This document shows, one piece after another, positions 8,593-45,707 of a DNA stretch of 64,000 nucleotides (position 1 is the stretch's first letter; every line of letters begins with the position of its first letter). Source of the DNA: Escherichia phage Ptacy1532; sequence record PQ863255.1. One strand, given 5' to 3'. The position numbers and the translations under genes were made by a program. Below the pieces are notes generated by a model that worked only from the letters and a program-made list of their open reading frames with translations, was not told the origin of the DNA and searched no databases.

Positions 8593-8601
8593 TAATGTAT
8601 A
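8593..8601 (+). promoter_or_regulatory. TAATGTATA motif, candidate phage promoter element
   Basis: Exact 9-mer 33 nt upstream of ATG at 8635 and just after the capsid terminator; same 9-mer recurs at 4 other intergenic sites. Confidence 0.4.
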
Positions 8602-8634
8602 TTCTTTGTCTACATATAACAAGGAGGACAACCT

Positions 8635-9387
8635 ATGGCAATGCCAGATGTTCAATACCCCATCAATACCTATGGGTGGCTAAAGAAGGCCGTGGCCCTC
8701 TGGGCAGATAGGGACGATGACGAATTTGTTAATCAAATTCCAAACTTTATTAACTTTGCAGAGAAAGAGATTTATCGTAACTTACGTATCCCTCCTCTGG
8801 AAAAAGAAGTATATCTCAGTATTAAAAATGGAGTGGCTTTTATCCCTCCGGATTATTTACAAGCTCAGTGGATGATGAGAGCTAAAGATGGAGCAATATT
8901 CCAAGTAACTTCTCCAGAAGAAATAAGCTATCGCAAACAACACGGTACAATTAATCCTTCTCATTGGAATAATCAACCTGTTAATTTTGCTCGTTTCGGA
9001 AGTCGTTTCCTTTTCTATCCACTGATTGATGCTGATATTCCCGTTTACCCGGATGATGGAAGTCCTGCTATTCCAGCAGAGAACTCTGTGATTCTTAGTT
9101 ATTATGCAGATCCTCCAGAGTTTCATGCAGATGAAGACACCAGTGCGATACTTACGATTGCTCCGGAACTTCTTCTATATTTTACCCTTAGGCATGCCTG
9201 TCTTTTTGTTCAGGATGATAACGGTGTTCAAAAATGGTCTGCATTAGGTAAGGCTATTCTTGATGAGATGGTTGAGCAAGATAAGAAACAGGAGTATTCA
9301 GGCTCTCCTATTGCGATACCTAATAATATGACCAGACTTCAGAGTAGCCTACCAGATATTTATGGGATACGTACCTCTAGAGTATAA
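8635..9387 (+). CDS. virion structural protein (putative)
   Basis: 250-aa ORF with AAGGAGG SD downstream of capsid gene; function unassigned. Confidence 0.45.
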   Translation: MAMPDVQYPINTYGWLKKAVALWADRDDDEFVNQIPNFINFAEKEIYRNLRIPPLEKEVYLSIKNGVAFIPPDYLQAQWMMRAKDGAIFQVTSPEEISYRKQHGTINPSHWNNQPVNFARFGSRFLFYPLIDADIPVYPDDGSPAIPAENSVILSYYADPPEFHADEDTSAILTIAPELLLYFTLRHACLFVQDDNGVQKWSALGKAILDEMVEQDKKQEYSGSPIAIPNNMTRLQSSLPDIYGIRTSRV

Positions 9388-9396
9388 GGAGATTTT

Positions 9397-12300
9397 ATGA
9401 TCAGTTACAACAACTCAGCACCTAATGCGGTTAATAACGTAGGTCAATTTGGTGCTACAGAAGGCTCTATCGGTGCTTACAAGTCAGCAGCTGAATATGC
9501 AGCTGATTCTAAATACTGGGCGATGCTTTCTCAAAAGAACTACAACAATATTGGTGAGATTCTTAAAGAAGTAGAGAGACTTTATTCAGAAGGCGAGCTG
9601 CTGAAAGCAGATATTGAACAACTCAAATCTGATTTTGAAAACCAAAACCAAATACTTCTAGGACTCATTCAGCAAACTGGTGAAGCTATTGACGACACTA
9701 ATACCGCTATTGGTGAAGCTAATGCAGCAACAGACCGAGCCAATCAAGCAGTACAAGACGTTCTTACTCAGTTAGATAAGATTTCTAATATGTCTGTTGT
9801 TGCCACCACTCTTCCTCCGGGAGCGCCTGCAACTGGAAGTTTTGATAACAGCACAGGTGTTTTCTCCTTCGGTATCCCTGAGGGTCAACCCGGTAAAGAT
9901 GGTAAAGACGGAACGGACGGTACAATCTCTGATATTGGGGATGTTGCCATAAGCACTCCTGTGGCTGATGATTACGGATTCTTTGTGGATAAAGATGATG
10001 GTGGTTTGTATCGAACTCCGATGAGCGAGATTGCTAAGCTAGTTCCGGCAGTGATTAGTTTCAATGGTCGTACTGGTCCAGTTGTTCCAGCTGCTGGGGA
10101 TTATACGGTAAGTCAAGTTACGGGTGCAGCTGCTTCTGGCGTTAACAACGACATTAACCAAATTCGTGGATTAACCACCGCTCTGTCTGTAGCTCAAGGT
10201 GGCACAGGTGCTAAGAATGCAGATGACGCTAGAACTAACCTATCTGCAATGCTTGACTCTAAAACAGGGCTTTCTAGTACAACCGATCTTAATACTCTGA
10301 ATGGAACAAAAGCAGGTTTCTATTACCAACCTATGTCAGCTTATGCTACCACCGAGTTGAACTATCCTGTACCACTGGCAGGATCTTTACTAGTTGTGAA
10401 AACTGGAGCAAACACTGGGTACTCATGTAAGCAAGTTTATAGTTTGTATGATAACCCAAATGTAACATATTCGCGGGTGCTTAATGCTAGCGCAGGTCCG
10501 ACCTCTCCTTGGTCTGCATGGAAACGTCATATATTTACTGAGAGAGTAGAAGAGGGAGCTTCCGCTACTTTCATGTATTCCACTTATTCTCCGGATGCTC
10601 CTAGACTTCAGGTTGGGACTAATGGTTTGTGGGGGTGTCATAACGGAACTAACTGGGTTTCTTTGGCCTTGGCTCAAGGTGGTACTGGGGCAACAACAGC
10701 AGCTGGTGCTCGAGCTAATTTAAACTTGGATAGATTTGGGGCAATTGGCTCTGAGACTCAAATGTTTTCTCCTAGCGGTAGTAAGAAAATCATTATTACT
10801 AATGACAAATGGGGAGCTTATGACATTGCTGCTGCCAAATACCTCCCTTTAGGTATTGACCAAGGTGGTACAGGTGGTGGAACAGCTGATGCAGCTCGTA
10901 TGTCTCTTGTTGCTGCTAAAAGTGGGGCTAACTCTGATATAACCTCAATGACTAATGTGGTCAATTTCACTCAGTCTCCAACAATCCCTGATGCAGTGTC
11001 TTCTAATGAACCTGTTGCTCTTGGACAACTCTCTACAGAGACTGCCGCTTTGGATACGAAGATTACAGAAGCTAAAGATGCTGCTGCTGCTGCTAACACT
11101 AATGCTAACAGTAGGGTTCTTACTTCTCAGCTTTCAAACACATCTGAAGTAGCTCAAGGAGATGCTTTAGTGGGGGTTATGGCTCCCTTCACTGGTGCTA
11201 CTGCTCGTACTCAGCACGACAAGAACCTTGATGTAATCTCTATAGCTGATTTTGGTGGTGGTACAAGCTTGTTAGATAATGGTACTGCTCTTCAAAGAGC
11301 TGTCACTTATGCAGCAACCGCATCCGGTAATAATCGTGGTATGGTCTATATTCCTCCAGGAGTGTGGAATTTTACTTCCGGTGTATCTGTTCCGGGTAAC
11401 GTTTCTATTAAAGGGGCTGGGGTTGGTTCAACCCAATTAAAAATAAACTCTGCAAACTTGGTTTTGTTTGATATTGGTAATGGAACGAATAACCCGAACA
11501 ACGTCAGCATCTCGGATTTGCATGTTCTTGTAAGTTCTACTTGCACAGCAAACCCTTTATTCCGTTTTAGAAATGGATACAATTGTGGTATTGATAACAT
11601 CCGTGTTGATGGACCTTGGTACGATCTTATCCACTTCCGTGGTGGTTCTGCTCAGTTCATCTATCGTGTCTCGGATAGTATTCTAAATGGGACTACTACT
11701 AGCCGTCACACAATAACCATCGGTGAATCCTCAGCAGATGGTGTTGTTCAAGATGTGTTCTTAACAAACTTAGTTCTTGGTGGGAAAACCACTGGATATG
11801 GTGTTTATGAAAAATACTCTTCTGGTGTATATGCTACTAATGTTGACTCTCTTACTGTCAACGTAGGCTGGGCTTGGGAACCTGCTACTGGGTGCTACTG
11901 CAAAGGTAGTTTCTACACTGCAATCCTAGGAGATACTAACTCTACGGCTGGTCTTAGAATTAGACCTCAGGCTGGTACAACAGTTAGCGACTTAACTTTC
12001 AATGGGTGTTGGGCAAGTTCCGCTGGGTCTAACAGTTCTCATCATGGTTTGATCATTGATAGTTCTGCTGGTACTGTAGCAAACATTAGCTTTAATGGTT
12101 TAACTGCTGTGAATAACAAAGGTCATGGTGTCTACATTAATGGATCTACCAATGGATACGGTTATGAGTTCACAAACCTTAGTGTTTCTAATAACAGTCA
12201 AGCTGGTGCTTCTCTGTGTAGTGGTATGAAAATTGTAGCCGGTTCTTCTCACATAAACATTTCTAATGGTCATGCGGGTGGTACTCTTGGTTTAGGTACA

Positions 12301-12681
12301 AACAACCAAGCCTATGGTATTGACGTTGAGGCTGGTACTGGCAACTCTATTAAAATTGTAAACATGGAGATGCACAATAATAAGCTCGGGGCTATGAATT
12401 TTGGGGCAACTGGTCCTTACAATAGGATTGAAGGGTGTTCACCTTTTAGAACTCGTATGAAAGGGTCAGTAGAGCTTAAAAATGGTACATCCTCTATTAC
12501 AGTAAACCCAGGTTTGAACAGACCGTTCGGTGGTGCTGATGTGCAGGTTACTCCTACTACAGATCTAGGCGCTTTGCGCTATTGGGTTACCCAGAGTGGG
12601 AATAGTTTTACCATCAATACCAATGCTAACGTCAGCGGTGGTCAGTGGTTCTCTTGGGCTGTTGATGCATCTTATAGTTAA
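9397..12681 (+). CDS. tail fibre / tailspike protein with beta-helix domain
   Basis: 1094 aa; three copies of a GGTGA..A.AR.NL repeat typical of phage tail-fibre repeats; C-terminal half rich in N/G/S/T repeats consistent with a right-handed beta-helix. Confidence 0.65.
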   Translation: MISYNNSAPNAVNNVGQFGATEGSIGAYKSAAEYAADSKYWAMLSQKNYNNIGEILKEVERLYSEGELLKADIEQLKSDFENQNQILLGLIQQTGEAIDDTNTAIGEANAATDRANQAVQDVLTQLDKISNMSVVATTLPPGAPATGSFDNSTGVFSFGIPEGQPGKDGKDGTDGTISDIGDVAISTPVADDYGFFVDKDDGGLYRTPMSEIAKLVPAVISFNGRTGPVVPAAGDYTVSQVTGAAASGVNNDINQIRGLTTALSVAQGGTGAKNADDARTNLSAMLDSKTGLSSTTDLNTLNGTKAGFYYQPMSAYATTELNYPVPLAGSLLVVKTGANTGYSCKQVYSLYDNPNVTYSRVLNASAGPTSPWSAWKRHIFTERVEEGASATFMYSTYSPDAPRLQVGTNGLWGCHNGTNWVSLALAQGGTGATTAAGARANLNLDRFGAIGSETQMFSPSGSKKIIITNDKWGAYDIAAAKYLPLGIDQGGTGGGTADAARMSLVAAKSGANSDITSMTNVVNFTQSPTIPDAVSSNEPVALGQLSTETAALDTKITEAKDAAAAANTNANSRVLTSQLSNTSEVAQGDALVGVMAPFTGATARTQHDKNLDVISIADFGGGTSLLDNGTALQRAVTYAATASGNNRGMVYIPPGVWNFTSGVSVPGNVSIKGAGVGSTQLKINSANLVLFDIGNGTNNPNNVSISDLHVLVSSTCTANPLFRFRNGYNCGIDNIRVDGPWYDLIHFRGGSAQFIYRVSDSILNGTTTSRHTITIGESSADGVVQDVFLTNLVLGGKTTGYGVYEKYSSGVYATNVDSLTVNVGWAWEPATGCYCKGSFYTAILGDTNSTAGLRIRPQAGTTVSDLTFNGCWASSAGSNSSHHGLIIDSSAGTVANISFNGLTAVNNKGHGVYINGSTNGYGYEFTNLSVSNNSQAGASLCSGMKIVAGSSHINISNGHAGGTLGLGTNNQAYGIDVEAGTGNSIKIVNMEMHNNKLGAMNFGATGPYNRIEGCSPFRTRMKGSVELKNGTSSITVNPGLNRPFGGADVQVTPTTDLGALRYWVTQSGNSFTINTNANVSGGQWFSWAVDASYS

Positions 12682-12688
12682 TTCTAAT

Positions 12689-12708: not shown

Positions 12709-12777
12709 AGTAGTACTTAGGTGAGACAGATAATGAATTCAATATGAATGAAAGGTTAATACATAGGAGACACTCAA

Positions 12778-22302: not shown

Positions 22303-23958
22303 ATGCAACAGACAACTTACGCTCAGGTTAGAAGTCGTGACCCGAGAAATACTTTCTATGGTGTTAATCCGGGAGCGGCTTCGGCCTCTCCTTATATGGC
22401 TAGACCGACTCAGACAGCAGATATTTCTATGTACCAACGTCCTGCTGTACCTTCATCTCTTGCGGGTCTTGTCTCTCAAGCAGAAGAAGATCAGAATGCT
22501 ATGATTAATCCGGGGTTCCAGCAGCGTCTTATGGAACAGCAGAATCAAGGAACCCCTACCAGTCTTCAGGGTATTGATATTGGAGCACCAGCCCCTGTAG
22601 CGGCTAATCCTAACCTATCCACTGATCAAGGTTTACAAGATGCAGGGCTTATGCCTAGTGACCCTCTTCCGGTAACACCTCCTCCTAAACCATTAGAAGA
22701 TGGTCCTATGGAGTTTACTCCTTCTCAGGTGGAACAGGCACAAGGTGTGATTAACACTCTTGCTCAAGGACAAGATACTGGTGATGGGATGGCTGCTGCT
22801 ACTCGTGCTAAAGATCAGGAACGTGTTAACAACGATATCTTGCAAGTTGCGAAAGCTAAAGACCCTTCGGAAGCTTGGAACAAACTACAGAAAGAACCAT
22901 TCTACCAAAACTCCAGTTTCTATACAGGTTTGATGGGTGTAGGTCTTTCCATCATGTCAGGTAAATCTCCTATCGAAGCTTTCCAGATTGGTCAGGGAAT
23001 GGCTAATCAAGATGAGACTAAGAAGCAACTGGAAGCTAACCGTGATGCTCTAATTGAACAAGGTTTCTCTCAAGATTCGATCGCAGCTGCTATTGCTAAC
23101 GGAGATCCTTCTCTGCTGAAGATGAAAGCTGTGGACCCTGCTCAGAAAGAAGCGTTGTATGCTGCTCGTGAAGAACGACAGAATGCTGAATGGGACAGAC
23201 GTCAACAGATTCAAGAGCAGACTATGCGTGAGCGTGCTGAGGAAACTCGTCGATCCGCTGAAGAAAGAGCTAATATGAACTTTGAACGTCAGAAAGAGTT
23301 GATTGGCTATCGTGATAAAGTTAAGGCTGAACGTGCTGAACAGGCTGCTCAGAGTTTTAACTTCAACCCGAAAGAAGTCCGTCTTGCTCAGAATACAGCT
23401 GAAGGTACGGTTGCTAAGCAGTGGGCAGAGAAAGGTGGCTTGTTTAACCAGTCCAATAAAGACTTGGACTTGGCTGATAAAGCTGTTAAGGACAAAGATT
23501 ATCAGACGGCCCGTTCTGCTTACATGCAGGCTATCATGAACTCCGCAAGGGCTGAAATCGGTGCTACTCGTTCTCTTACCGAAGAAGACTTGGGACACTT
23601 TGCAGAAGACCCATCAATCTTCGTTCGTGTTGGTAACAAGTTTTCACTTAAATCTGGATGGCGTCCTACTGATTCTGCTCTTGCTTATGCTCGTAAGCAG
23701 GCTAACGTTGGTCACACCTCTGCAATGAAAGGTGTTGCTGATGCTAAGAGAGCTACGATTGAAGCTTATATCGGTTCTGGTATGGATAAGAAGAGAGCTA
23801 CTGCATTGGTCAACCGTGCAATCCCTTCTGGTGGTTTCTATGACCCTCTAGGTGTTTTCTCTGAACAAGCGGAGGAAGCAGTTGGTGGTGCAGCAACCAA
23901 TCCTAAGCTTAATGGTGCTTTATCGGCTGTAGAAGATACTAGCTGGTTCACGCAATAA
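22303..23958 (+). CDS. internal virion protein (putative)
   Basis: 551-aa ORF with AGGAGA SD in the internal virion protein block. Confidence 0.45.
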   Translation: MQQTTYAQVRSRDPRNTFYGVNPGAASASPYMARPTQTADISMYQRPAVPSSLAGLVSQAEEDQNAMINPGFQQRLMEQQNQGTPTSLQGIDIGAPAPVAANPNLSTDQGLQDAGLMPSDPLPVTPPPKPLEDGPMEFTPSQVEQAQGVINTLAQGQDTGDGMAAATRAKDQERVNNDILQVAKAKDPSEAWNKLQKEPFYQNSSFYTGLMGVGLSIMSGKSPIEAFQIGQGMANQDETKKQLEANRDALIEQGFSQDSIAAAIANGDPSLLKMKAVDPAQKEALYAAREERQNAEWDRRQQIQEQTMRERAEETRRSAEERANMNFERQKELIGYRDKVKAERAEQAAQSFNFNPKEVRLAQNTAEGTVAKQWAEKGGLFNQSNKDLDLADKAVKDKDYQTARSAYMQAIMNSARAEIGATRSLTEEDLGHFAEDPSIFVRVGNKFSLKSGWRPTDSALAYARKQANVGHTSAMKGVADAKRATIEAYIGSGMDKKRATALVNRAIPSGGFYDPLGVFSEQAEEAVGGAATNPKLNGALSAVEDTSWFTQ

Positions 23959-23965
23959 GACCTAA

Positions 23966-24010
23966 GTCCTGCCTTCTATAATGTATATAGGGGGTAGGAC
24001 ATTTTTATTT
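23966..24010 (+). terminator. hairpin followed by T-run, possible terminator/attenuator
   Basis: GTCCTGCC...GGTAGGAC 8-bp stem with G-U wobble and 19-nt loop, then ATTTTTATTT; loop contains the TAATGTATA motif. Confidence 0.3.
23979..23987 (+). promoter_or_regulatory. TAATGTATA motif, candidate phage promoter element
   Basis: Exact 9-mer 38 nt upstream of ATG at 24026. Confidence 0.4.
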
Positions 24011-24025
24011 ATAAAAGGAGACGTT

Positions 24026-27000
24026 ATGGCTAACATTAAACCGTGGGAAGAAGCTTCCAAAGCTCCTGCGTATCTGAATGCCTCTCCGGAGCAACAAGCT
24101 CAAATGAGAGAACAATATAAGGCAGCAGGTGGCTCTATTCCTGAGGAACAACCAGTAGCACAACCACAACAAGAAGAACGTGGTGCTATAGGTGAGTTTG
24201 CTCAAGGTGTGTCAAATGCTCTTCAATCTGGTGGTGCAAATATTGCAGCTAGTGCTGCTAAAGGTATTGGTGGTTTAGTTGAGATTGGTGAGAATCTAGC
24301 TGGAACACAAACTAGTTATGGTAAGCGTATCCAAGAGAACTCTCAGAACCTTCTGAAAGAACGTATGGATAAGATTGAGGATGGGGTTGGTAAAACTGTT
24401 GGTCAGTATGCTGGCGTTGCTGGTGATATTGGTATGACTGTTGCTAATCCATTGGCTGCTGCTGCTATCATCGCAGGTCGTGAGACAGGTCGTGCGTATG
24501 CAGACCAAACACCTGAAGAGGGAGAAGATAAATCTATTCTAGATGCGGCCTTAGTTGGTGGTGCTAACTATGCGGCTCAGAGAATCCTTCCGGGTGCTGT
24601 TGGTACAGCTGAGTCCACACTTGGACGTATCGGTCAGAACGTTGCTAGTAACGCAGTGGCTGGTGCTAAAGGTGGCGCTCTTGTAGGTGCTGCTGAAGCT
24701 CAGAACAAGCATGGAGATGATACAACCTTTGCTAATGTATTAGAGGGTGCTATCGAAGAAGGTGCTATGGGTGCTGCATTTGGTGGTGCAGTTGGTGGGG
24801 TTCATGGTTTGATTAGCCGTCCAGACTCTGCTGTCTTCAAGAATACTCCAGAGTATGCGAAGACTGATATTGCTGCTGATGACGAACTAATTCGCAGTGC
24901 TAAGAATATTGATGAATTGAAAGAAGCCTACTCTAAAGCTGAAACTGCTAACGCTGCTTCTGCTCTGAATCTTCTGGATGAGAATGGATTCCGTATTACA
25001 GATGCTGTTGCTGTAGATTCTCCTGCTGCTCAGCGTATTCTCAATACTGACCAAGCTCGCGCTGAGAAAGCTGCTTCCATTCAGAAAGAACATTCCAACA
25101 TTCCGGGCCTTAACCCTTTAGCTTCTCCTGCTAAGACTCGTGGTAAAGCATTCGCTGATAACGAGCACAACCAGAAGCAGGCTGTTGCTATGAAGGATGC
25201 AATGGCTGATTACACCAAAGACAACACGAAAGCTCTTACAGATGTTCTAGATAATCTAGACCGTGAATTAACATCTCTCCGAGCTTCTGGTGATTTTACT
25301 GGTAGTCCGATTGATATTAAGAATCGTACACAAGCCGACCGTGACTTCATTGATGCTTACAAGACTTTCTACAACGAAGCAAATCGATTCAAAGCTCGTG
25401 ATGGTGAAGACTTTAATAACTTTGTAGAGAAAGCTGCTGAACTACAGAAGATGGCTGATAATGTTTCTCCAGAGATGAAGAAAGCTATTGGTGGGTTGAA
25501 GAAACTGAAAGGTATGCCTGAAGGTTTTAATCCTATCCAAGATGCTTACACTCTGAACAATACAGCTAAGTTCATGAGCAATCAAGATCGTGGTTGGACT
25601 TCCCTGACTGATGATGGATTCCGTGAGGCTTCTTCACCTAGTCTGGTAATGAATACTCTCGGTGCTGCTAAGTATGCTCTGAATCGCTTCTCTTCTCAGC
25701 GTGCTCGCTCTCAACGCGTTAAACAACAAGAGTCTAACAGTGAAGCTATCCGCTCTCTGGCTCGTGGTGATTTGGAAGTTGCTCGTGCTAAGTCTACTGC
25801 TGACGAAGCTCGTGCTAAGATGGAAGAAGAACCAGTTGTTGATGACATTAAATTTAAGACGCAAAATGACGTAGAAACCGAACCGGTTCGGGAGCCTTCT
25901 TCTAGTACTGTGACGGAAGAAAATCTTCCTTCTTCTACTCCTCAAGAAACCCCTCTTACAGCTCGTGATTTAGTTGCGCAAAGACGCGCTATCCGTCAGG
26001 CTGAACAGCGTCGCGCTGAAGAAGAGGCATTGGCTGCTCAAGAAGCTCCGGTCGAACAAGCTCCACAGGCTGAACCTCTCCCTGCTCGTAACCCTTTAGA
26101 GGAACGTCGTGCAATGGAACAGCAACGTGCTCAAGAAGAGGCCGCACAGGCTCCAGAACCCACCGTAGAGGAACCAATAGTCAAAGCTGAGCCATTACCT
26201 GCCCGTGCTCCTAAAGCTCCTAAGGAGGCTGTACAGGACGTTAAACCGGCAAGTGGTGTAGAACGTTTAGCTGCTATGTCTAGTGCTGCTCGTCAGGCTA
26301 CCAAAGATCGTGCAGAACGTTTTGCTCGTTCTCTGTACTCCAAGGCTGCTAAGGCTAAAGCTACTGCTGAAAACTTCTTGGCTTATAAAGGTGATCCTAA
26401 GGAATTGATGCGTCGTATTCGTCAGGAAGATAATGCTATCAACACTGAACGTCATGAAGAAATGGCTCGTAACCAGCTGGCTTCTCAGCAAGGTATTGCT
26501 ACTGCTAAGAACAACACTGTACGAACTAATTTTGCTGAATGGGTTAAAGAGCGTGGTCTGCCAGAAGACATTGCTACTAAGGCATTACGTGCTGAAGAGA
26601 AAGGTTTAGGTGGGAACGTAACTAACTTGGATAGTCTGAAACGTCGTGCTGAAAGGTTGTATCAGAAGCAGCGTGAGGATGAGTTTGATAGACTGTACCA
26701 ACAAGCTCTAGAAGAGAATAAAGCTTTCGATAACAAGAATGCTCCTAAGCTGGCTGACCAGAAGAAAGAGCTTCAGTCTGAGATTGATGCTTTGATTGAT
26801 TCAGAACCTTTACGTCCTGCTCAGAAAGATGCTATGCGTAAGCTGATGAATGATTTTGTAGATGGGAAGTTTAAATCTTCAGAGAAGGCTGGTAGGGAAG
26901 AGGCTTTGGAAGTTGGTCAGATGAAGGATATTTGGGATGGGTTTATTAATACCTATAACAGAGAGGTGAATGCCTTCAACAAAGCTAACAAGAACTCTCA

Positions 27001-30969: not shown

Positions 30970-32253
<1,284 letters not shown>

Positions 32254-32969: not shown

Positions 32970-33716
32970 TCAAAATGGGCTATCGTTGTCGTCTTCGTAA
33001 GTAGAAGCAGGCTCTTTATCAATCGTAGGGATTGAAGGAGTAGCTTCTTTCTGTTCTGTTTCAGAAGCACGAGTAATTTCACGACCAGCCAGAGGCATGT
33101 TCTTAGCGTCATTAGCTTGAGTAAGCAGGTTGCGCTGGAACGGGAACATCAGTTGATAGGATGCTACGTTCTCATCGGTTTCAGCATACGGTTCGAAGAA
33201 TACCAGAGGACTACGAGCTTCACCAACTGCTGCACGATATTTGGTTGGGATTGGAGAAATGGTCTTGATGGAGTTTTTAACTTCACCAGCTTTGTTAGTG
33301 TAAGAGTTAACCAGAATGTTAACAGGCTGGCCTAACAGAACATCCTTGAACCAAGACAGATCACCTTTCAGTGCTTGAATACTTGGGTCAATCATCTTGC
33401 AAAGATCAAGAATACCAGAGTTCTTAGCTCGTGGGTTTACATCATAGCTCTTGAACTGGCAAGCCGGACGTGGTTCTAATGCCTTACCATCGGAATCTTT
33501 ACCAGTAGCATCAACACCAATCAGCTCGAAAGCTAAATCCATACGGAAAGCTGGATTCTTAGGAGTTACTGCTTTGGTCTTCGGGTCAATCCAAGGGTCA
33601 CGATTGTGAACACCCAAACCTACTACACGAACGATACGTGCTTCGTACTCACCATCAGGGATTACATCGTAGTTGGATTTACGGGAAGCAGTTGCGATAG
33701 TTGGAATCATAGACAT
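32970..33716 (-). CDS. single-stranded DNA-binding protein (T7 gp2.5-like, putative)
   Basis: 248 aa; acidic C-terminal tail ending EDDNDSPF as in SSB proteins; located in T7-like replication module; AAGGAA SD. Confidence 0.45.
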   Translation of the reverse strand: MSMIPTIATASRKSNYDVIPDGEYEARIVRVVGLGVHNRDPWIDPKTKAVTPKNPAFRMDLAFELIGVDATGKDSDGKALEPRPACQFKSYDVNPRAKNSGILDLCKMIDPSIQALKGDLSWFKDVLLGQPVNILVNSYTNKAGEVKNSIKTISPIPTKYRAAVGEARSPLVFFEPYAETDENVASYQLMFPFQRNLLTQANDAKNMPLAGREITRASETEQKEATPSIPTIDKEPASTYEDDNDSPF

Positions 33717-34132
33717 ATTTTAATTTCCTTATTTAATTTGAAAGATTGTTGCTCTCTTTGAGCGGTTATGTATAGTATACATTACGCTTATACCGATAAG
33801 AGTACTATATAATATAAGTATCTTTGGTAGTAGATATAACACACTAGTAATGTATATATTGTATAGCTGATAAAGTTATTGCAGGCTTGTATATTGGGCA
33901 ATTCACAGAATCCCTTGCAAGTACCGAAGGGCAGGAGCCACCTGCGAGATAAAAATAGAGAATTAAGGAATCCTTGATTTAGGTTGTAGGGACTCCTAGG
34001 GACTTTGATTCTCTATTTAAAAGAATATTAATTACTTATTACCTAAATAATTAACTAACTTACTTAAACCAAATTCAAGAATAATAGATAAAAAGATTAT
34101 TCCTAAGAAAGCTAAAAAGTAAAGGATATAAG
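33717..34132. promoter_or_regulatory. AT-rich intergenic region with promoter-like motifs, palindromes and direct repeats
   Basis: 416 bp non-coding; TAATGTATA on both strands (33848-33856 plus, 33776-33784 minus); palindromes GTATAC, AGTACT, CTTGCAAG; hairpin GCAGG-AGCCA-CCTGC; TAGGGACT direct repeat. Confidence 0.4.
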
Positions 34133-34297
34133 TTACCATTCAAGTAAACCTTTAAAGTTAGTTTGTTCTACTATCCTCTGATAACGAAGATTAGAATCAG
34201 CTTGTTTCTTTAACATCTCATTATATTGATCTCTGATAGAGTCTTTATATACTACAGGTTCTTTAAATAATGAGATCTTGTTCTTTTCTTCTTTCAT
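34133..34297 (-). CDS. hypothetical small protein
   Basis: ORF track 34133..34381; internal ATG at 34297 has AGGAAGG SD and limits overlap with the phosphoesterase gene. Confidence 0.3.
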   Translation of the reverse strand: MKEEKNKISLFKEPVVYKDSIRDQYNEMLKKQADSNLRYQRIVEQTNFKGLLEW

Positions 34298-36515: not shown

Positions 36516-38323
36516 TCAGAAGCCAGAGGACATTCCATGTTCAAATATTCACCCGCTTTCTTAACACAAAGCTCAGTGTGTTCTTTGAGTTTCTGTACAT
36601 CATTACGATTCACTGAGAATTGGCCCTCATCGTGCATATCAATTACCTTAGCACAACGAACCCTATCCCTCTCAATCCACTTGTTTAGGAACATCATAGC
36701 ATATTTCATAACAACAGCACCAGCACATTGCAGGAGAGTGTTAAGTGCTTTATGAACCATAACCTTACCAGTGGCATCTCGTCTCATTGTAATCTTACGA
36801 CCATCAACACCAATCAAGTATCCTTGAGCAGCTTTCTCTGTCATACGATCAATGAGGATTGCAATACATGGGTTCTCTGCCAAGAAACGTGCTCGCATCA
36901 CTGAACCTTCGTCAGCCCCACCACCTACAATTGAACCAAGCTTAGCGTCTCCAGCACCGTAGTTGAATGCATAGATAAACGTTTTAGCATTGTCACGAGT
37001 AGGAAGACCAGCAAGTTTCTGGTTGTGGGAGTGGATATCGCCTTCAAGGAGGATATCACGATACATAATAGCAGAAGCTAAACCACGTTCTGCCAGAGCT
37101 TTCTTAGCTGGATTGTTTTCTTCTATTGCTTCAGCAAGCATATCCCTACACTCTTTAATGAGGTAGTGAGCGAGCATACGAAGCTCAAGTCCAGAACCAT
37201 CATACCCTAAGAATACTTCTTTACCAGCGGGTATGTAATATTTGTAAGCACCTACAGGTTTGTCTTTCTTCCCCGGCTTACCTTTCTCGTAAATTACGTT
37301 AGTACCTTTTCGTATATAACAACCATCAGGAACAACGTTAGTAATAACGAAAGGACGAGAATGATCACTGTCTGAGTTATAGTCAGACTCAAACAGACTG
37401 CGACACTCGTGACCAAACAGACCACGGGAGGGAATATTAACCACGATACGATGTTTGAATCGAAAAGTCGGAGTAGCGCAGCTGTTAGCTTCTGCCGAAA
37501 GTTTACCATCTTCGCGTTCCTTTGCTATGAGTCCACTGATAAGACCTAGCCTGTGAGCCGCTACAACGCGTCTCTTAAGCAAACTTCCGACACTCCCTAG
37601 CTCACCCCCTAGCCCCTCTTCAAGAGTCTCCTCGAGGTTTGTAGGAGCTGTAGGCCACTTGTTTGATGTGGCTAGTGCTTTCTTAATCTCATCAAACGTT
37701 ACAGGATTACGACGATTAGGGTTCAATCCCAAACCAAATACGTAAGCCTTCATATAGTTCTTAGTCTTAAACCTGAAATGCTTTTCTAAGAACTTCTTAA
37801 TATCAGCGTCAACCATCTCGGCTGTCTGCTTCTGTTTAGTATTGCCTCGCATCCAAGCAGTGTACCATGCTTGATACGTTCCATACTTTCTCATATCTTT
37901 CTTAATTTCGAAAGTATTCCAAGGCTTCTTAGATACATTAAACTCTGGAGGAAGAAAGCCCTCATCCATAAGAGCTTCTTTAACTCGAGCATCTTTCGAT
38001 GGGTCAAAGTCTACGTATTCAACACAGGTGAAAGCTCCACCAATATCTTCTCTTTTCAGCCCAACCCTATCACAATAGGCTTGAGGCCACTTCTGTAAAG
38101 CTCCAGACTTCTTAAACGGCTTCATATAAGTAGAGCCGTCTAATCTCATCTTAGGTAAGAGAGGAATCAACTCTCTGTCAATATTAACAATAATCTCTTT
38201 AAGGAGGTGAACATACCACCGAGCATTTCTTCGGTTGAAACTCACTCCGTGCTTTGCTTGCTTAGAGATTATATCAGCGACAGTCATCTCTGTCAAAAAT
38301 GGAAGAGCGTCCGGGTTGCTCAC
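36479..38323 (-). CDS. DNA polymerase, family A polymerase domain (T7 gp5-like), lacks exonuclease domain
   Basis: 614 aa; motif A YDGSGLELRMLAHYL, motif B PTRDNAKTFIYAFNYGAGDAKLG, motif C VIDMHDEGQF; no Exo motifs. Confidence 0.8.
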   Translation of the reverse strand: MSNPDALPFLTEMTVADIISKQAKHGVSFNRRNARWYVHLLKEIIVNIDRELIPLLPKMRLDGSTYMKPFKKSGALQKWPQAYCDRVGLKREDIGGAFTCVEYVDFDPSKDARVKEALMDEGFLPPEFNVSKKPWNTFEIKKDMRKYGTYQAWYTAWMRGNTKQKQTAEMVDADIKKFLEKHFRFKTKNYMKAYVFGLGLNPNRRNPVTFDEIKKALATSNKWPTAPTNLEETLEEGLGGELGSVGSLLKRRVVAAHRLGLISGLIAKEREDGKLSAEANSCATPTFRFKHRIVVNIPSRGLFGHECRSLFESDYNSDSDHSRPFVITNVVPDGCYIRKGTNVIYEKGKPGKKDKPVGAYKYYIPAGKEVFLGYDGSGLELRMLAHYLIKECRDMLAEAIEENNPAKKALAERGLASAIMYRDILLEGDIHSHNQKLAGLPTRDNAKTFIYAFNYGAGDAKLGSIVGGGADEGSVMRARFLAENPCIAILIDRMTEKAAQGYLIGVDGRKITMRRDATGKVMVHKALNTLLQCAGAVVMKYAMMFLNKWIERDRVRCAKVIDMHDEGQFSVNRNDVQKLKEHTELCVKKAGEYLNMECPLASDCQIGLNWMHTH

Positions 38324-39839: not shown

Positions 39840-40154
39840 TTATGAGCTTAAAGCTCCTTTGCGTGCTCCAGCTGCTTTTCCAGCTCGATCACCACTTTTG
39901 CCGCCGTTTGAACGGTTTGAGCTGACTGATTCAACACGTAAATTGCTTGACGCATTAGAACCTCCAGACTTGACAGCTCGTTTGTGTCCAACATCTTTAC
40001 CTCTGACAGCAGCTTTTCCATCGCGCTTTTCAACGATGCGACGTGCACGGTGGCGCTGAGCATCTCCGCTCTTGCTCCCAACGCCTGTCTCACCACGGGC
40101 AATTGCGGTACGTCTTTCTTGTGCATAATCTCTCTTTCCTACATGGTCTGCCAT
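39840..40154 (-). CDS. highly basic Gly/Ser/Arg/Lys-rich protein
   Basis: 104 aa; strong TAAGGAG SD 6 nt upstream; TAATGTATA motif 36 nt upstream; an alternative overlapping frame (39848..40126) has weaker RBS. Confidence 0.4.
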   Translation of the reverse strand: MADHVGKRDYAQERRTAIARGETGVGSKSGDAQRHRARRIVEKRDGKAAVRGKDVGHKRAVKSGGSNASSNLRVESVSSNRSNGGKSGDRAGKAAGARKGALSS

Positions 40155-40190: not shown

Positions 40191-40199
40191 TATACATTA
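40191..40199 (-). promoter_or_regulatory. TAATGTATA motif, candidate phage promoter element
   Basis: Exact 9-mer on minus strand upstream of gene 39840..40154. Confidence 0.4.
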
Positions 40200-40208
40200 T
40201 AGATGATG

Positions 40209-40376
40209 TTAAAACTCTGCTAAGTACTTAATATCAGAGGCATATACCTCATCAAAGGAAATAACTTCCCCGTTGTAAAGAAGCTCTATTTTCAGTATAC
40301 CAGAGCATTTGGTGTCTTTAGAGTCAACTCTGATAGAGAGTTTATCAACTATATGAGCTTTAATCTCTTCTATCAT
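40209..40376 (-). CDS. hypothetical small protein
   Basis: ORF track 40209..40457; shortened to internal Met to avoid overlap. Confidence 0.3.
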   Translation of the reverse strand: MIEEIKAHIVDKLSIRVDSKDTKCSGILKIELLYNGEVISFDEVYASDIKYLAEF

Positions 40377-40389
40377 TAACTCTTGAGTA

Positions 40390-40575
40390 TTACTCACTCC
40401 ACCCTCCCGGTGGTACAAAATCATCAGGAACGTCAATGATAGTAGGTTCTCCATCATTCATGCAGGTGTCTTCATTGAACTCTTCACACTCAAAACATGC
40501 TCGTTCGATATTTTTGTAGAAGTCGATGGTTGCTGAACCATCACCACAATCTCGGATAACTAAAGCGACTTTCAT
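40390..40575 (-). CDS. hypothetical small Cys-containing protein
   Basis: 61-aa ORF, 4-nt overlap with phoH stop. Confidence 0.4.
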   Translation of the reverse strand: MKVALVIRDCGDGSATIDFYKNIERACFECEEFNEDTCMNDGEPTIIDVPDDFVPPGGWSE

Positions 40576-41315
40576 TTATCTTGTTCCTTTTCCATAGCTT
40601 TAACAATGGCTTTACAGAAACCAGAACGAACAATGTCATCTGACTCACCGTCTACAATCTCAGCAAACTCATACAGATCATGTTCATCAATAAAGTTAGT
40701 AGCCCAAGTCAGGCCACTCTCACGACCACGCATATCATGCTGGTTTGTATCACCCATGCAAAACAGCTGAGAGGTTTCTCCCAATCGAGTCATGATGGAG
40801 AAGGCTTCATCCTTAGTTGTGTTCTGGAACTCATCTACGATAACAATAGCATCATTGAAAGAACGACCACGGAGGTATTCCAGAGGTACGAACTCGATGT
40901 TGCTATTACCAAGTTGGCATTCATAGAACCCCTTACCATATCGCTGAGTAATAACATCAATGATAGGCATCAGGTAAGGTTCAAACTTCTCACGCATTCC
41001 TCCCGGAAGTAACCCAAGAGAATTGCCCATGCCAACCGAAGGACGACTCAGAATGATCTTCTGAATCTTACCACTCTTCAGTGCATCGATAACCGTGGAA
41101 GTGATTACAAAGGTCTTACCACAGCCCGCAGGAGCGTCTGTGAACACAACTTGTTTAGTCTTAATAGCATTGAGTAGCTCAGACTGAAACTGGTTCTGAG
41201 GGACTACAGGCTTTGCTAAAACCACCTCTTCATACTCTCGCTTACCTTTACGAGTAACAAGTGCTTCCCGACGAAGGTCTTTCCGTGATTCTTTCCGTGA
41301 TTGACGACGACTCAT
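40572..41315 (-). CDS. phoH: PhoH-like ATPase
   Basis: 247 aa; Walker A APAGCGKTF and PhoH-like core. Confidence 0.8.
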   Translation of the reverse strand: MSRRQSRKESRKDLRREALVTRKGKREYEEVVLAKPVVPQNQFQSELLNAIKTKQVVFTDAPAGCGKTFVITSTVIDALKSGKIQKIILSRPSVGMGNSLGLLPGGMREKFEPYLMPIIDVITQRYGKGFYECQLGNSNIEFVPLEYLRGRSFNDAIVIVDEFQNTTKDEAFSIMTRLGETSQLFCMGDTNQHDMRGRESGLTWATNFIDEHDLYEFAEIVDGESDDIVRSGFCKAIVKAMEKEQDK

Positions 41316-41897: not shown

Positions 41898-42213
41898 TAC
41901 TCTTCTCTTTATGAAGTCTATAAACAGCTGTCGCCATGCAAGCAACAGCTTCATTATGCGGAAGGTGCATCCCTGTAGAACCATCCCAATCTTTGAACTC
42001 ATTGTCAAAGACTCCGGTAGGTTCTGGATACAGAGCTTGCAGCTCCACTAGATCATTAGCAACTTGTTGCCATTTATCATCAGACCAGATAGGGTCATCC
42101 AACCAGTAATACAAATAGGAATGGATGATCAATTGCCTTCTATGCCGATTGATTACTTCAGCGGGACTTATTTCACTTCCATTTGAAGTTCTAAATGTAT
42201 TACCGTCGATCAT
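41857..42213 (-). CDS. small protein resembling the N-terminal Ia domain of NAD-dependent DNA ligase
   Basis: 118 aa; HSYLYYWLDDPIWSD...L.EL.ALYPE parallels the LigA H.YLY..D.P.I.D..YD..L.EL....PE pattern; no adenylation KxDG motif. Confidence 0.35.
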   Translation of the reverse strand: MIDGNTFRTSNGSEISPAEVINRHRRQLIIHSYLYYWLDDPIWSDDKWQQVANDLVELQALYPEPTGVFDNEFKDWDGSTGMHLPHNEAVACMATAVYRLHKEKSNESMGTNKSNQPV

Positions 42214-42416
42214 TATGAAAATTTCCGTTCTGTTAAAAAGTATATAACTTCATTATCTGGAGACCGAACTTTCTCTCCATTTACTAATTTCTTAGCATCT
42301 TCATATGAAGCACAATCCAAAGCAGGGTTATCAGGTGTTGGCTTCCCTAGGAAATATTTCCAAGTCCAACGCTCTCTGTCATCATCTTGACAGTCAAGAG
42401 TCCACAATGTTTTCAT
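42213..42416 (-). CDS. hypothetical protein (67 aa)
   Basis: ORF in operon. Confidence 0.4.
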   Translation of the reverse strand: MKTLWTLDCQDDDRERWTWKYFLGKPTPDNPALDCASYEDAKKLVNGEKVRSPDNEVIYFLTERKFS

Positions 42417-42601
42417 TTAACAACCTTAAATTTGAATGTTGTTGGGTGATAATAGTGCAACCTGTTGATAGTATGCTTTGTTTCAAGGTATGTCCTACAG
42501 GAGTGGCACATAACATGAGACAAACCAGTCACAGGATTGGGCTTAAAATTGATGATAAGCTTCTCTTTCTTACAGAAGCTACAGACTTTCTTTTCCATCT
42601 T
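42413..42601 (-). CDS. small Cys/His-rich protein
   Basis: ORF track 42413..42667; internal Met MEKKVCSFCKK...CHSC preferred. Confidence 0.3.
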   Translation of the reverse strand, partial: KMEKKVCSFCKKEKLIINFKPNPVTGLSHVMCHSCRTYLETKHTINRLHYYHPTTFKFKVVK

Positions 42602-42812
42602 TTCTCCAGTGGTCAACGAATTGCTGAAACACTTTATGGTCGAAGGTGAAACCACGAGCAATCCCACACTCTACGAAAGTAGAAGGCATATAGTCTACAT
42701 CACCTTTAGATGTATGACCATAAACTTGAATAAGCTTTTTAATCTTACCCTTCTCTCTTCGAGGAAGCATCCTAAATGCCTCCTGAATATCTGTAATATG
42801 TTTGACTTTCAT
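42579..42812 (-). CDS. hypothetical protein (77 aa)
   Basis: ORF in operon. Confidence 0.35.
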   Translation of the reverse strand: MKVKHITDIQEAFRMLPRREKGKIKKLIQVYGHTSKGDVDYMPSTFVECGIARGFTFDHKVFQQFVDHWRKDGKESL

Positions 42813-42958
42813 CAGAAATTCCTGCTAATCCTCTGGATTATGAGAACAGCAATACTCACATACTCCGCAATATGGACAAATTTCTACACTTGGGTCATAT
42901 GCATCATCCACTGTCATTCCGCACTTGGTACAGAACACGTCGTCATCTTCTTCCAATA

Positions 42959-43615
42959 TTAAATCTCCAATGTTTTCTTCAGAGCTGCCCACGAGATTGG
43001 GTAGATCTTAGTCATCTCTTCGTCTACAGATTTAGCAAACACTCGAACTTCATATTGAGCGTGAGAGGAGAGTCGCTGACGACACAACTCAAACCATCCA
43101 TACAAAGAACCAGTCCACACCCACTCAGTGATCATCCCCTGAGGAAGAACAAATCGAGCTTGCTCTGGTGCAATAAATTCAATCAACTTGTCATATGCTG
43201 CTAGAGAAGCTTCATATGCATCATTAATCAGCATTAATGCTTCAGCTCGTTCTCCGTCGATGAGTTGAATCCCTGAACCTGCATGGAGGTCCGAAGGTCT
43301 CGCAAAAATCTCTTTAGGGATGAAGACTTCAACTGCTCCATCTTTATACCGCCGGGACATTTCGTTCCACGAGAATCCAACCTGATGCTTCTGTAGTTGA
43401 CGAGCGATTGCAATTGGAGCCTTACAACGAAAGGACACTTGTGGGTGACGGAACGGAGTGCAGTGTTTCTCTCTAGCCAAGAAATTAATCAACCGAGTGT
43501 CACGATCGTTCAAATCACCCTCTCGTACAACACCAAAAGAAACTCTTGCAGCATTAACAACAGTTTTATCACTGCCCATAGCCTCAATCAATGTTGCTTG
43601 CAATTGTTCATTCAT
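42959..43615 (-). CDS. thyX: flavin-dependent thymidylate synthase (ThyX-like)
   Basis: 218 aa; overall ThyX-like pattern with HCTPFRH and SRRY segments; call from motif resemblance only. Confidence 0.6.
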   Translation of the reverse strand: MNEQLQATLIEAMGSDKTVVNAARVSFGVVREGDLNDRDTRLINFLAREKHCTPFRHPQVSFRCKAPIAIARQLQKHQVGFSWNEMSRRYKDGAVEVFIPKEIFARPSDLHAGSGIQLIDGERAEALMLINDAYEASLAAYDKLIEFIAPEQARFVLPQGMITEWVWTGSLYGWFELCRQRLSSHAQYEVRVFAKSVDEEMTKIYPISWAALKKTLEI

Positions 43616-44087
43616 ACTTCAACTTCTCCTTGTTATAAGCAATCTCTGCTTCCTCTGGAGTATGGAAAGTTCCTAGATGCTTAGTCTTTCCATTAACTCC
43701 GATGATAGCTCTGAATTTTGTACCACTAGCCGTCTCTCTGATGTAAACACCCATTGGAAGTTTTCCAGCTTTTCCGGCTCTGTTGTATTGTTTTCTGTTA
43801 TGACAGTTTGTAGATGGGTCAACATCTCTTAGATTTTTAAGAGAGTCATCCAGTTTAATCTGGTTGATATGATCAATCTCAAACTCAGGCATCTTTCCAT
43901 AAGAGAAAAACCAAGCTAATCGACATGCTCTGTAAGATTTCCCTTCATAATAGATATACCTGTAACCTAATGTTGAGATACACCCAGCAATGTTCCCTGA
44001 TATTCTCCGACCTTTAGTATTCTTCCACCTAAAGACCCCAGTATCAGGGTCATATGCTAGGTCATCTTTTATTTTATCAGTTAACAC
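43608..44087 (-). CDS. HNH homing endonuclease with AP2-like domain
   Basis: 159 aa; EIDHINQIKLDDSLKNLR HNH motif; C-terminal GVY..ASGTKFRA AP2-like segment. Confidence 0.7.
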   Translation of the reverse strand: MLTDKIKDDLAYDPDTGVFRWKNTKGRRISGNIAGCISTLGYRYIYYEGKSYRACRLAWFFSYGKMPEFEIDHINQIKLDDSLKNLRDVDPSTNCHNRKQYNRAGKAGKLPMGVYIRETASGTKFRAIIGVNGKTKHLGTFHTPEEAEIAYNKEKLKYE

Positions 44088-44352
44088 CTAAAGCTGTGTC
44101 CAAAAATGCTTTCAGGTTTGCTTCAGTCTGCATACCAGAGAGGCTGTAATGTGCACCGCTGTTACGGTCAGGTACAACGAAAGCAGGGATGCTTCGTACA
44201 CCATACTTAACAGCTTGCTCACGACCATCACCTTCAAGGATGTTAATCTCTTCCACTTCTACATCAAACTCCTTAACAACCTTCTCAAAGGTAGGAGCCA
44301 TTGCTTTACATGGAGCACATTGATCACTATAAAACTTAATTACTTTAGACAT
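44077..44352 (-). CDS. thioredoxin-fold protein
   Basis: ORF track 44077..44358 (TTG); ATG 44352 preferred (GAGGA SD); CAPC active-site motif and cis-Pro region VRSIPAFVV. Confidence 0.65.
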   Translation of the reverse strand: MSKVIKFYSDQCAPCKAMAPTFEKVVKEFDVEVEEINILEGDGREQAVKYGVRSIPAFVVPDRNSGAHYSLSGMQTEANLKAFLDTALGVN

Positions 44353-44522
44353 TAACAATCCTCGTTAACAAATTCTTTAAGGTGGCGTTCTGTGGTAGGT
44401 ATTACGATGTAATCTTTATACCCTTGAGCTTTGGCTAAATCCTCAGCTATCTTTTTAGTAGCCCCCAATGCCATCACACACTGACAAACAATCACCGTGT
44501 GAGCTTTGTATTCGTCCTTCAT
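44352..44522 (-). CDS. hypothetical small protein (56 aa)
   Basis: Below ORF-track cutoff; stop overlaps thioredoxin start (TAATG); contains CQC. Confidence 0.25.
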   Translation of the reverse strand: MKDEYKAHTVIVCQCVMALGATKKIAEDLAKAQGYKDYIVIPTTERHLKEFVNEDC

Positions 44523-44772
44523 TTAAGAACCTTATGCAGTCAGGAGGTGAAGCAGGAATGGGATAACAACAGCTACGATAACCATGATGGTTGATGCTGT
44601 TTGAATCTCACCTTTCTTGTCAGGGGTTTCTTCGATAAGCTTACCAGAAGCCCAATAAATACCACCACCGATAAAGATAGCCCAAATACCCCATACGATT
44701 GCTGATAACATATATCTATATCCTTATAAATAAGTTCGCCCCACCTCGGGTTAGGAGACAGGGCGGAGGTTT

Positions 44773-45384
44773 TTAGTAAGACACATCACCACTTGAGTGG
44801 GACATGTTGCTCTTGACGAAGTAGCAATACTTGCCAAGACCTTCATTAATTTCTTGAAGCATACTCTGGTCAACTGGATAAGTGGCTAAATCGCCATCAA
44901 ACTCATCCATCTTCTCAATAATACACATCAAGGTCATGCACATATCAGAGAGCATACCGTCCATATCCAGATCAGCATTACCCTCTGAGAACCAAGCATG
45001 GGAGAGGTAGTTAGCTGCTGTAGCATCCACCTTAACACAGTGGTATCGCATACGCTCAGCAATACGATCTCCTACTTGTCGTGCGTAATCTTCCAGCTCA
45101 TCAAACATACCATGAACACCCTGAAATCCTGCACCAGAGACATTCCAGTGGTAGTTCTTAGCTTTGATATGCAAGAGTTCCATGTTAGCTTGTAAGCAGC
45201 TTAGGATGTGTTCTAGGCTGTTTCCACTAATCATACCCTGCATAGTTTCAAGGCGAGAGATTGAAAGCTCAGACCGGTCTAACATGTTATATTCTGCACG
45301 ACCAATCTCAGGTAAATCAAAGACATTCTTATGCATTTGGGTTTTCTCCATCAAGTTCAACTGAGTTAGCAACGTTACGTGCAA
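44773..45384 (-). CDS. Dps/ferritin-like protein (putative)
   Basis: 203 aa; KNYHWNVSGAGFQGVHGMFDELEDYARQVGDRIAERM fits the Dps pattern HWN..G..F...H...E.......D.IAER. Confidence 0.45.
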   Translation of the reverse strand: MHVTLLTQLNLMEKTQMHKNVFDLPEIGRAEYNMLDRSELSISRLETMQGMISGNSLEHILSCLQANMELLHIKAKNYHWNVSGAGFQGVHGMFDELEDYARQVGDRIAERMRYHCVKVDATAANYLSHAWFSEGNADLDMDGMLSDMCMTLMCIIEKMDEFDGDLATYPVDQSMLQEINEGLGKYCYFVKSNMSHSSGDVSY

Positions 45385-45658
45385 TATTATCCATTACCTG
45401 CTGGGTAATTACGATGCAGTTCTGTGGGTCTACTGACTTAGAACGCCCCATTTCAGGGTCATACACCTTAACTCGCTTAGCAGTTGAACCTGTAACCTGA
45501 AGAACCTTCAACAGATATCCCTGATTACCAATAGACCAAGCAACAACATCACGATTCTTGATAAAGCGACCAAGCATATCACGATGATAAAACTGTTGCA
45601 TCACCTTGGATTTTGTAATCTCTTCAGTGGGCGGGGCCACTTTACTCAAATCTAACAT
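45329..45658 (-). CDS. hypothetical protein (109 aa)
   Basis: ORF; AAATGTATAT promoter-like variant 40 nt upstream. Confidence 0.4.
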   Translation of the reverse strand: MLDLSKVAPPTEEITKSKVMQQFYHRDMLGRFIKNRDVVAWSIGNQGYLLKVLQVTGSTAKRVKVYDPEMGRSKSVDPQNCIVITQQVMDNIARNVANSVELDGENPNA

Positions 45659-45698
45659 AACTCTCTCCTGTAAAAATACAAATTCTTATTGTACTCTA

Positions 45699-45707
45699 TA
45701 TACATTT
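45699..45707 (-). promoter_or_regulatory. AAATGTATA motif variant, candidate promoter element
   Basis: One mismatch to TAATGTATA; intergenic, upstream of 45329..45658. Confidence 0.3.

Follow-up and report, generated by a model that had tools for sequence, protein, structure and literature searches.

[quoted passage not shown] (2012, J Mol Biol 416:389). Six phiEco32 promoters recognized by the gp36 holoenzyme have the element tAATGTAtA in common (PMC8948821, section 3.1 and Supplementary Table S3; PMC4331800; PMC4281155). They precede genes 6, 13, 26, 40, 58, and 68, and transcription starts 6 to 8 nt 3′ of the element (PMC8948821, PMC4331800, PMC4281155). Together with gp36, E. coli core polymerase transcribes the P26 and P68 promoters in vitro, with stimulation by gp79, which activates P26 4-fold in vitro, and P68 is the promoter present in the cryo-EM open complex (PMC12276001; PDB 9m7y). 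Promoters of the phiEco32 type are described in the literature as single-element (PMC8948821). The recurrence of TAATGTATA in the DNA analyzed here is a correct observation and not a new one, since the element is already published as the gp36 promoter element; the original prediction, which pointed to a similar motif in phiEco32-like phages, was right in doing so (PMC8948821, PMC4331800, PMC4281155). A full-text literature search with the motif string returned the known 2015 paper as the only relevant match, the others being unrelated, and these promoters carry no annotation in the GenBank records that we examined for this phage group.

The phage sigma factor, its activator, and the promoter sites

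The window, by which we mean the whole 64,000-nt stretch of DNA that was analyzed, is from a Kuravirus and is 99.5% identical to vB_EcoP_WFI101126. It encodes orthologs of gp36 and gp79:

31349..31993, minus strand: phage sigma factor, gp36 ortholog, 213 of 214 residues identical to phiEco32 gp36
51638..51886, minus strand: gp79 ortholog, which inhibits transcription by host sigma-70 and activates transcription by gp36, 82 of 82 residues identical to phi32_79

The sigma factor matches chain F of PDB 9m7y (E 4e-145), and the gp79 ortholog matches chain G; against Pfam Sigma70_r2 the sigma factor gives a weak match below the family cut-off. Alignment to gp36 places all ten published DNA-contact residues (E79, H80, Y83, R84, W90, S91, S94, N95, Y186, and R187) in the protein. 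As in the phiEco32 literature, the host RNA polymerase core would bind this sigma factor, whose N-terminal domain would read A-14, A-13, T-12, and G-11 of the motif and open the DNA from −11, while its C-terminal domain, held in place by gp79, would read the duplex further upstream, at positions −37 and −34. Transcription would begin 6 to 8 nt past the motif, and gp79 would also turn off host sigma-70 transcription, producing the switch from early to middle and late genes.

On both strands of the whole window, TAATGTATA occurs exactly five times, at 8593(+), 23979(+), 33776(−), 33848(+), and 40191(−). The expectation is 0.61 copies, and five or more were found in none of 100 dinucleotide-preserving shuffles, which rules out a chance origin of the repeats. 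The variants AAATGTATA at 45699-45707(−) and TAATGTAGA at 1078-1086(+) agree with the published P68 and P6 sequences, respectively, P6 being given as TAATGTAgA in Table S3 of PMC8948821. One-mismatch variants of TAATGTATA as a class are not enriched in the window (20 observed, 18.3 expected), and the signal therefore resides in the exact motif and its placement. The resulting map comprises seven sites:

1056..1086, plus strand: P6 ortholog, predicted late promoter; GGGAGG (−37 to −32), 16-nt spacer, TAATGTAGA (−15 to −7)
8571..8601, plus strand: P13 ortholog, predicted promoter; AAGACC, 16-nt spacer, TAATGTATA; gene start at 8635
23957..23987, plus strand: P26 ortholog, predicted promoter; AAGACC, 16-nt spacer, TAATGTATA; gene start at 24026
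33776..33806, minus strand: P40 ortholog, predicted middle promoter; AGTACT, 16-nt spacer, TAATGTATA; gene 32970..33716(−)
33826..33856, plus strand: X+, candidate promoter back to back with P40; GGTAGT, 16-nt spacer, TAATGTATA
40191..40221, minus strand: P58 ortholog, predicted middle promoter; AGCAGA, 16-nt spacer, TAATGTATA; gene 39840..40154(−)
45699..45729, minus strand: P68 ortholog, predicted middle promoter; GGTAGT, 16-nt spacer, AAATGTATA; gene 45329..45658(−)

Orthology of the six named sites was assigned from annotation notes in the near-identical record MK373770 and from identical flanking sequence in phiEco32, where the counterparts lie at 1677 (upstream of phi32_6, in an identical arrangement), 9101 (phi32_13), 26014 (phi32_26), 36632(−) (phi32_40), 42937(−) (phi32_58), and 46862(−) (phi32_68). 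All seven sites are intergenic according to the MK373770 annotation; our crude ORF map, by which the non-coding share of the window is ~6%, marks P26, P40, and X+ as coding through mechanical ORFs, and intergenic status was taken from the GenBank annotation. The P13 site comes directly after a terminator hairpin, and the P26 motif lies within a stable terminator-like hairpin (−22.9 kcal/mol, z −4.8). From the end of the motif to the start codon there are 33 nt for the gene at 8635, 38 nt for 24026, 59 nt for 33716, 36 nt for 40154, and 40 nt for 45658, and six of the seven sites are co-directional with the next gene, 11 to 59 nt from its start codon. The shortest distance is that of P6 to the ORF at 1098, so that the ribosome-binding site of that gene would be missing from the P6 transcript. 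Motif spacing predicts transcription starts at 1093, 8608, 23994, 33769 (P40), 33863 (X+), 40184, and 45692.

The original prediction had listed the five exact copies and the variant at 45699-45707(−), had called every site intergenic, and had placed those preceding genes 33 to 60 nt from the start codon, all of which was borne out by the motif count, the annotation, and the measured distances. It overlooked the sixth canonical site, TAATGTAGA at 1078-1086(+), and its description of the motif as lying upstream of genes on the coding strand holds for the sites that precede genes and fails for 33848(+), which has no plus-strand gene downstream. Its proposal that the sigma factor encoded at 31349..31993 reads the motif as a phage-specific promoter is supported by the single difference from gp36 in 214 residues and by the orthologous sites. 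The TAATGTATA sites almost certainly serve a phiEco32-like phage as its middle and late promoters, an assignment in which function is carried over from phiEco32 on the basis of near-identity.

The upstream element

The seven window sites all carry T-R-R-N-A at −38 to −34, with a purine (G or A) at −37 and A at −34 in every one. These are the positions at which, in the cryo-EM structure, the gp36 C-terminal domain reads −37G (N7 by R187) and −34A (Y186 against the paired T) (PMC12276001). The claim in the original prediction that no −35-like element is conserved is consequently wrong, and its description of a single-element promoter needs revision. Across the 128 kb of two-strand sequence, a two-part pattern, RRNA-N18-NAATGTANA, matches exactly these seven sites and has no further match. 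In an unfiltered tally across 20 loci, the purine at −37 and the A at −34 were present in 31 of 31 distinct upstream variants, with one exception outside that tally, P40 of SU7, which has T at −37. A distant clade (L017, L018, and L020) keeps GG(T/A)ACT at the same spacing, with the downstream element changed to TAATGGATA. The window sites suggested that the base at −35 might tell late promoters from middle ones, but P26 of NJ01 breaks this rule.

The motif, the sigma factor, the activator, and the atomic contacts have all been published, so the finding as originally written matters little and is chiefly useful for annotation. The upstream T-R-R-N-A, often TGGTAGT, found at every promoter here and in the distant clade, generalizes a contact seen by cryo-EM at a single promoter and revises the single-element description, a small extension beyond the papers that we found. 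The seven-site map and the two-part pattern are transferable to all 98 relatives.

The X+ site and the conserved block beyond it

X+ is not among the six published promoters, nor is it in the other promoter lists that we found, the 2012 mapping being known through later summaries. It faces away from genes, and its −35 sequence, GGTAGT, is that of P68. It is also present in phiEco32, at 36704, and is intact in 17 of 18 relatives; in mgL013 it is mutated at the G corresponding to −11, giving the natural variant TAATATATA. We found no homolog of X+ or of the conserved block described below in the distant clade (L017, L018, and L020). Judged by its sequence, X+ is most likely a seventh gp36 promoter of the same build, and its predicted product is as follows:

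33863..34026, plus strand: predicted X+ transcript; 5′ hairpin at 33863-33879, variable middle, conserved block of ~105 nt at 33920-34025

The ~105-nt block is present exactly once per genome in 98 of 98 relatives and is kept at roughly at least 93% while neighboring genes drift to 75-80%. Within it are the hairpin GCAGGagccaCCTGC and, at 33953..34018, a stem of 15 bp. Compensatory changes occur in the 5′ hairpin at the predicted X+ start, and the X+ region shows covariation, along with wobble pairs on the plus strand only. Beyond X+, the plus strand has small ORFs of 21-32 aa with TTG starts; these were rejected as candidate products, the stretch being replaced by unrelated sequence in other genomes, and we infer that X+ would yield a non-coding transcript of ~160 nt and not an mRNA. 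Rfam gave no match for the whole window at gathering thresholds and only chance-level matches (E >2) for 33700-34150, a tRNA scan of the window found nothing, and the best match in a search for trans targets of the X+ RNA within the window was 11 nt long (E ~2, chance level). Tentatively, and with somewhat less than even confidence, we propose that X+ is a gp36 promoter, unreported as far as we found, that drives a structured non-coding RNA of ~160-190 nt (33863 to ~34026); the 3′ two-thirds of this RNA hardly vary among Kuravirus and Suseptimavirus genomes.

A different and rather doubtful account is that X+ is a cryptic or accessory site without a product of its own, acting either as a decoy or second polymerase site that modulates P40 or as an antisense source that blocks gene 41 operon read-through, with the block serving as a bidirectional terminator and as a junction at which mosaic modules recombine. 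Just 19 bp separate the −35 boxes of P40 and X+, A-runs and T-runs flank the long stem on both strands, the sequences on either side of the block exist in alternative, unrelated versions, and the mutated site of mgL013 also fits such a role. A terminator, however, needs no ~105 nt conserved so far above the level of the neighboring genes, a terminator scan found nothing at the block, and the compensatory changes in the 5′ hairpin at the predicted start also count against this account.

It is unlikely that X+ is instead a replication-origin promoter whose transcript would prime or activate replication at the block and the AT-rich DNA beyond. In T4, middle-mode promoters act in this way at oriF and oriG, and in T7 the phi1.1 promoters do so at the primary origin; we know of no origin mapped in this phage group. 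As at those origins, X+ would be a phage-specific promoter without a downstream ORF, aimed into a conserved or AT-rich non-coding region. It points away from all genes with the middle-type −35 of P68, and the block, occurring once in each genome, contains two TAGGGACT repeats 10 bp apart, followed by very AT-rich DNA. Unlike the T4 and T7 cases, there are signs that the predicted X+ transcript has a conserved RNA fold, and the covariation and the strand-specific wobble pairs speak for a folded RNA more than for an element that works purely as DNA. A small annotated ORF, the homolog of gene 41, also overlaps the AT-rich stretch.

That host sigma-70, and not the phage sigma factor, uses these sites as promoters, the motif then serving as an AT-rich −10-like box, is highly improbable: the SU10 genome paper suggests that middle promoters may also serve the sigma-70 holoenzyme (PMC4281155) and a weak 9/12 match in a simple sigma-70 scan overlaps X+, but such matches around X+ are no commoner than in shuffles (8 vs 6.2), TAATGTATA is not TATAAT-like at key positions, published in vitro work assigns the promoters to the gp36 holoenzyme with gp79 turning off sigma-70 transcription, and gp36 reads A-14, A-13, T-12, and G-11 in the cryo-EM structure (PMC12276001).

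If the non-coding RNA that we propose is real, it would be the only product known for the phage sigma factor that is not an mRNA but an RNA in its own right, and its role could be regulatory or that of a primer for replication. X+ together with the conserved block, the second small extension beyond the papers that we found, is a candidate phage non-coding RNA or origin that can be tested.

Comparison with known systems

The gp36 promoters of phiEco32 share with those of the window the 9-bp element, the six genomic positions, a near-identical gp36, an identical gp79, and the −37 and −34 bases; nothing of substance differs at the six canonical sites, and X+ is absent from the promoter lists found. 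The late promoters of phage 7-11, GTAAtg-(16)-aCTA, which depend on SaPh711_gp47 (PMC8948821), belong to the same lineage and likewise involve a phage-encoded sigma factor, equivalent genome positions, and a two-part layout with a 16-nt spacer (PMC8948821). In contrast, the 7-11 sigma factor is only ~15% identical, its promoters follow another consensus, and that phage has neither a gp79 homolog nor a middle class. An analogy with T4 middle promoters, where AsiA and MotA carry out sigma appropriation, was drawn by the authors of PMC12276001: in both systems a small phage protein remodels the contact between region 4 and the flap of RNA polymerase, which allows recognition of a new upstream element. 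T4 re-uses the host sigma-70 for this, whereas the present phage brings its own sigma factor.

Sites of the gp36 promoter motif

A 6-kb piece of the window shares 99.5% identity with Escherichia phage vB_EcoP_WFI101126 (Kuravirus, Gordonclarkvirinae), and 98 related phage records were found. The genes of the window follow the phiEco32 layout, with late structural genes on the + strand to ~28.4 kb and middle and early genes on the - strand beyond. The original prediction was of a recurring 9-mer acting as a phage-specific promoter, and the recurrence is real: TAATGTATA occurs exactly five times, compared with a mean of 0.61 in dinucleotide-preserving shuffles, and none of 100 shuffles reached five. 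Taken together, one-mismatch variants show no enrichment in the window (20 observed versus 18.3). In phiEco32, the holoenzyme of the phage sigma factor gp36 recognizes six promoters, named by their downstream genes 6, 13, 26, 40, 58, and 68, which have the single consensus tAATGTAtA in common and start transcription 6-8 bp downstream of it (PMC8948821). P6 is TAATGTAgA, P68 is aAATGTATA, and the remaining four are exact, in a compilation of six phages (PMC8948821 Supplementary Table S3). A scan of the phiEco32 genome found the same sites with flanks matching those in the window, and pairing by annotation and flanking sequence gave the following map:

1078 (+), TAATGTAGA, counterpart of P6
8593 (+), exact motif, counterpart of P13
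23979 (+), exact motif, counterpart of P26
33776 (-), exact motif, counterpart of P40
33848 (+), exact motif, the additional site X+
40191 (-), exact motif, counterpart of P58
45699 (-), variant AAATGTATA, counterpart of P68

The sites originally listed, and their spacings of 33, 38, 59, 36, and 40 nt from motif to start codon, were correct when rechecked in the window, but the P6 orthologue had been overlooked.

Several promoters have local peculiarities. P6 lies only 11 nt from the ORF start at 1098 (window 1078-1100, +), an arrangement identical in phiEco32, and a transcript beginning ~7 nt past the motif would be without the gene's AGGAG ribosome-binding site. The apical region of a very stable hairpin (23966-24012, +; -22.9 kcal/mol, z -4.8) contains the P26 motif, and a U-run follows the hairpin; the same stretch of DNA therefore holds both the gene 25 terminator and the gene 26 promoter. 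Immediately after the P40 motif comes its near inverted repeat, ATGTATA-c-TATACAT (33765-33785), which creates a one-mismatch copy, TTATGTATA, on the + strand at 33766, and shorter TGTA...TACA inverted repeats follow P13, P26, P58, and P68. In phage SU7, extra sequence in the spacer preceding the gene 58 homologue (40372-40769) looked like a putative HNH-endonuclease-type ORF, and no P58 motif was detected in that spacer at up to one mismatch.

The sigma factor and a conserved upstream element

The ORF at 31349..31993 (-), proposed originally as the sigma factor, is a gp36 orthologue (213/214 identity) and matches chain F of PDB 9m7y. Pfam returned only a sub-threshold Sigma70_r2 match, in agreement with gp36 being described in the literature as a remote sigma homologue. 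The reported DNA-touching residues E79, H80, Y83, R84, W90, S91, S94, N95, Y186, and R187 are all unchanged in an alignment to gp36. A second ORF, 51638..51886 (-), is identical (82/82) to gp79, the small co-activator that inhibits the sigma-70 holoenzyme and activates the gp36 holoenzyme (PMC12276001). In the cryo-EM structure of the P68 open complex, the gp36 N-terminal domain recognizes A-14, A-13, T-12, and G-11, DNA is melted from -11 to +2, and the gp79-anchored C-terminal domain uses R187 to read -37G and Y186 to read the T opposite -34A; mutation of the contacted promoter bases abolished transcription (PMC12276001). By near-identity, this mechanism would hold for the window phage as well.

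The original prediction held that no -35-like element is conserved, which is incorrect. With the motif placed at -15 to -7 at every window site, a register validated by the coincidence of the structure's -37G and -34A with G and A in phiEco32 P68, all seven sites have T at -38, purines at -37 and -36, and A at -34 (T-R-R-N-A). Across 31 distinct upstream variants taken from 20 loci and tallied without filtering, A at -34 and both purines were present in all 31 and T at -38 in 28, and positions -31 to -16 were without constraint. One exception, T at -37 in SU7 P40, falls outside this tally. The pattern RRNA-N18-NAATGTANA has seven matches in the window, exactly the seven sites. Since these upstream bases are conserved at all seven sites, the promoter is two-part; in its main text, the cryo-EM study describes the -35 contact only for P68 (PMC12276001).

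The region upstream of P40 exists in two unrelated versions that both keep the element, with AGTACT at -37 to -32 in one and GGTAGT in the other. The downstream element is TAATGGATA or AAATGGATA in a distant clade whose gene 40 protein is 67-70% identical, a drift that left GG(T/A)ACT at unchanged spacing. This clade comprises metagenome contigs of 82-90 kb from phiEco32-like phages (L017, L018, and L020), whose gene 40 promoter reads GG(T/A)ACT-N16-(T/A)AATGGATA, suggesting that the specificity of their sigma factor has shifted at -10 (G replacing T). The late promoters P13 and P26 have TAAGACCTA in common at -38 to -30 (8570-8578 and 23956-23964, +), and X+ carries TTGGTAGTAGATAT at -39 to -26, an exact match to P68 in both sequence and spacing. 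These shared stretches hint at subclasses of the upstream element; no rule separating late from middle promoters held cleanly across relatives.

X+ and its predicted transcript

X+ (33826..33856, +; motif 33848-33856) adjoins P40 back to back and is absent from the published promoter lists examined, including PMC8948821 Table S3 and PMC4331800. It is also carried by phiEco32, at 36704, and 17 of the 18 genomes examined have it intact. Relatives retain GGTAGTA and TAATGTATA with a variable spacer between them; in one metagenomic contig the site is altered to TAATATATA. X+ probably functions as a gp36 promoter. No credible + strand ORF was detected downstream, and a literature search found no description of an RNA or antisense promoter in this phage group.

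The predicted start, 33863, begins a 6-bp hairpin (33863-33879, +), in which relatives show compensatory changes: the fifth pair is C-G in 15 sequences, with single cases of A-U and U-A, and the fourth is G·U or G-C. Relatives differ over the next 40-70 nt, which exist in two unrelated versions. Beyond is a non-coding block of ~105 nt (33920-34025); all 98 related records carry a single copy with ≥92% identity, and none of them annotates it. Against SU7, 102 of 110 aligned columns match, compared with 79.5% identity for gene 40 and 75% for the sigma gene, making the block more conserved than these nearby genes. It holds a 5-bp hairpin (GCAGGagccaCCTGC), a palindrome (AAGGAATCCTT), and a 15-bp stem (33953..34018) whose U·G and G·U pairs become mismatches if read as the - strand. 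Folding was better than shuffles for the + strand (z -2.66) but not for the - strand (z -1.59). Covariation is thin, with double changes at one pair and a score reached by 1 of 500 shuffles. Two TAGGGACT repeats lie 10 bp apart in the block, and six genomes have lost a G jointly from both. The transcript and block had no Rfam match, the RNA showed no trans-complementarity above chance within the window, and no homologue was found in the distant clade. The predicted transcript may be a functional RNA, may prime replication, or may be a by-product.

Relation to the phiEco32 promoters

The original comparison with a similar sigma-dependent motif in phiEco32-like phages was right, as PMC4331800 and PMC4281155 agree with PMC8948821 on the gp36 promoter consensus. 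The motif is real and its interpretation right, yet it was already known in detail from phiEco32; to that system the present analysis adds a corrected seven-site map, evidence for the generality of the -35 contact, and the X+ lead.
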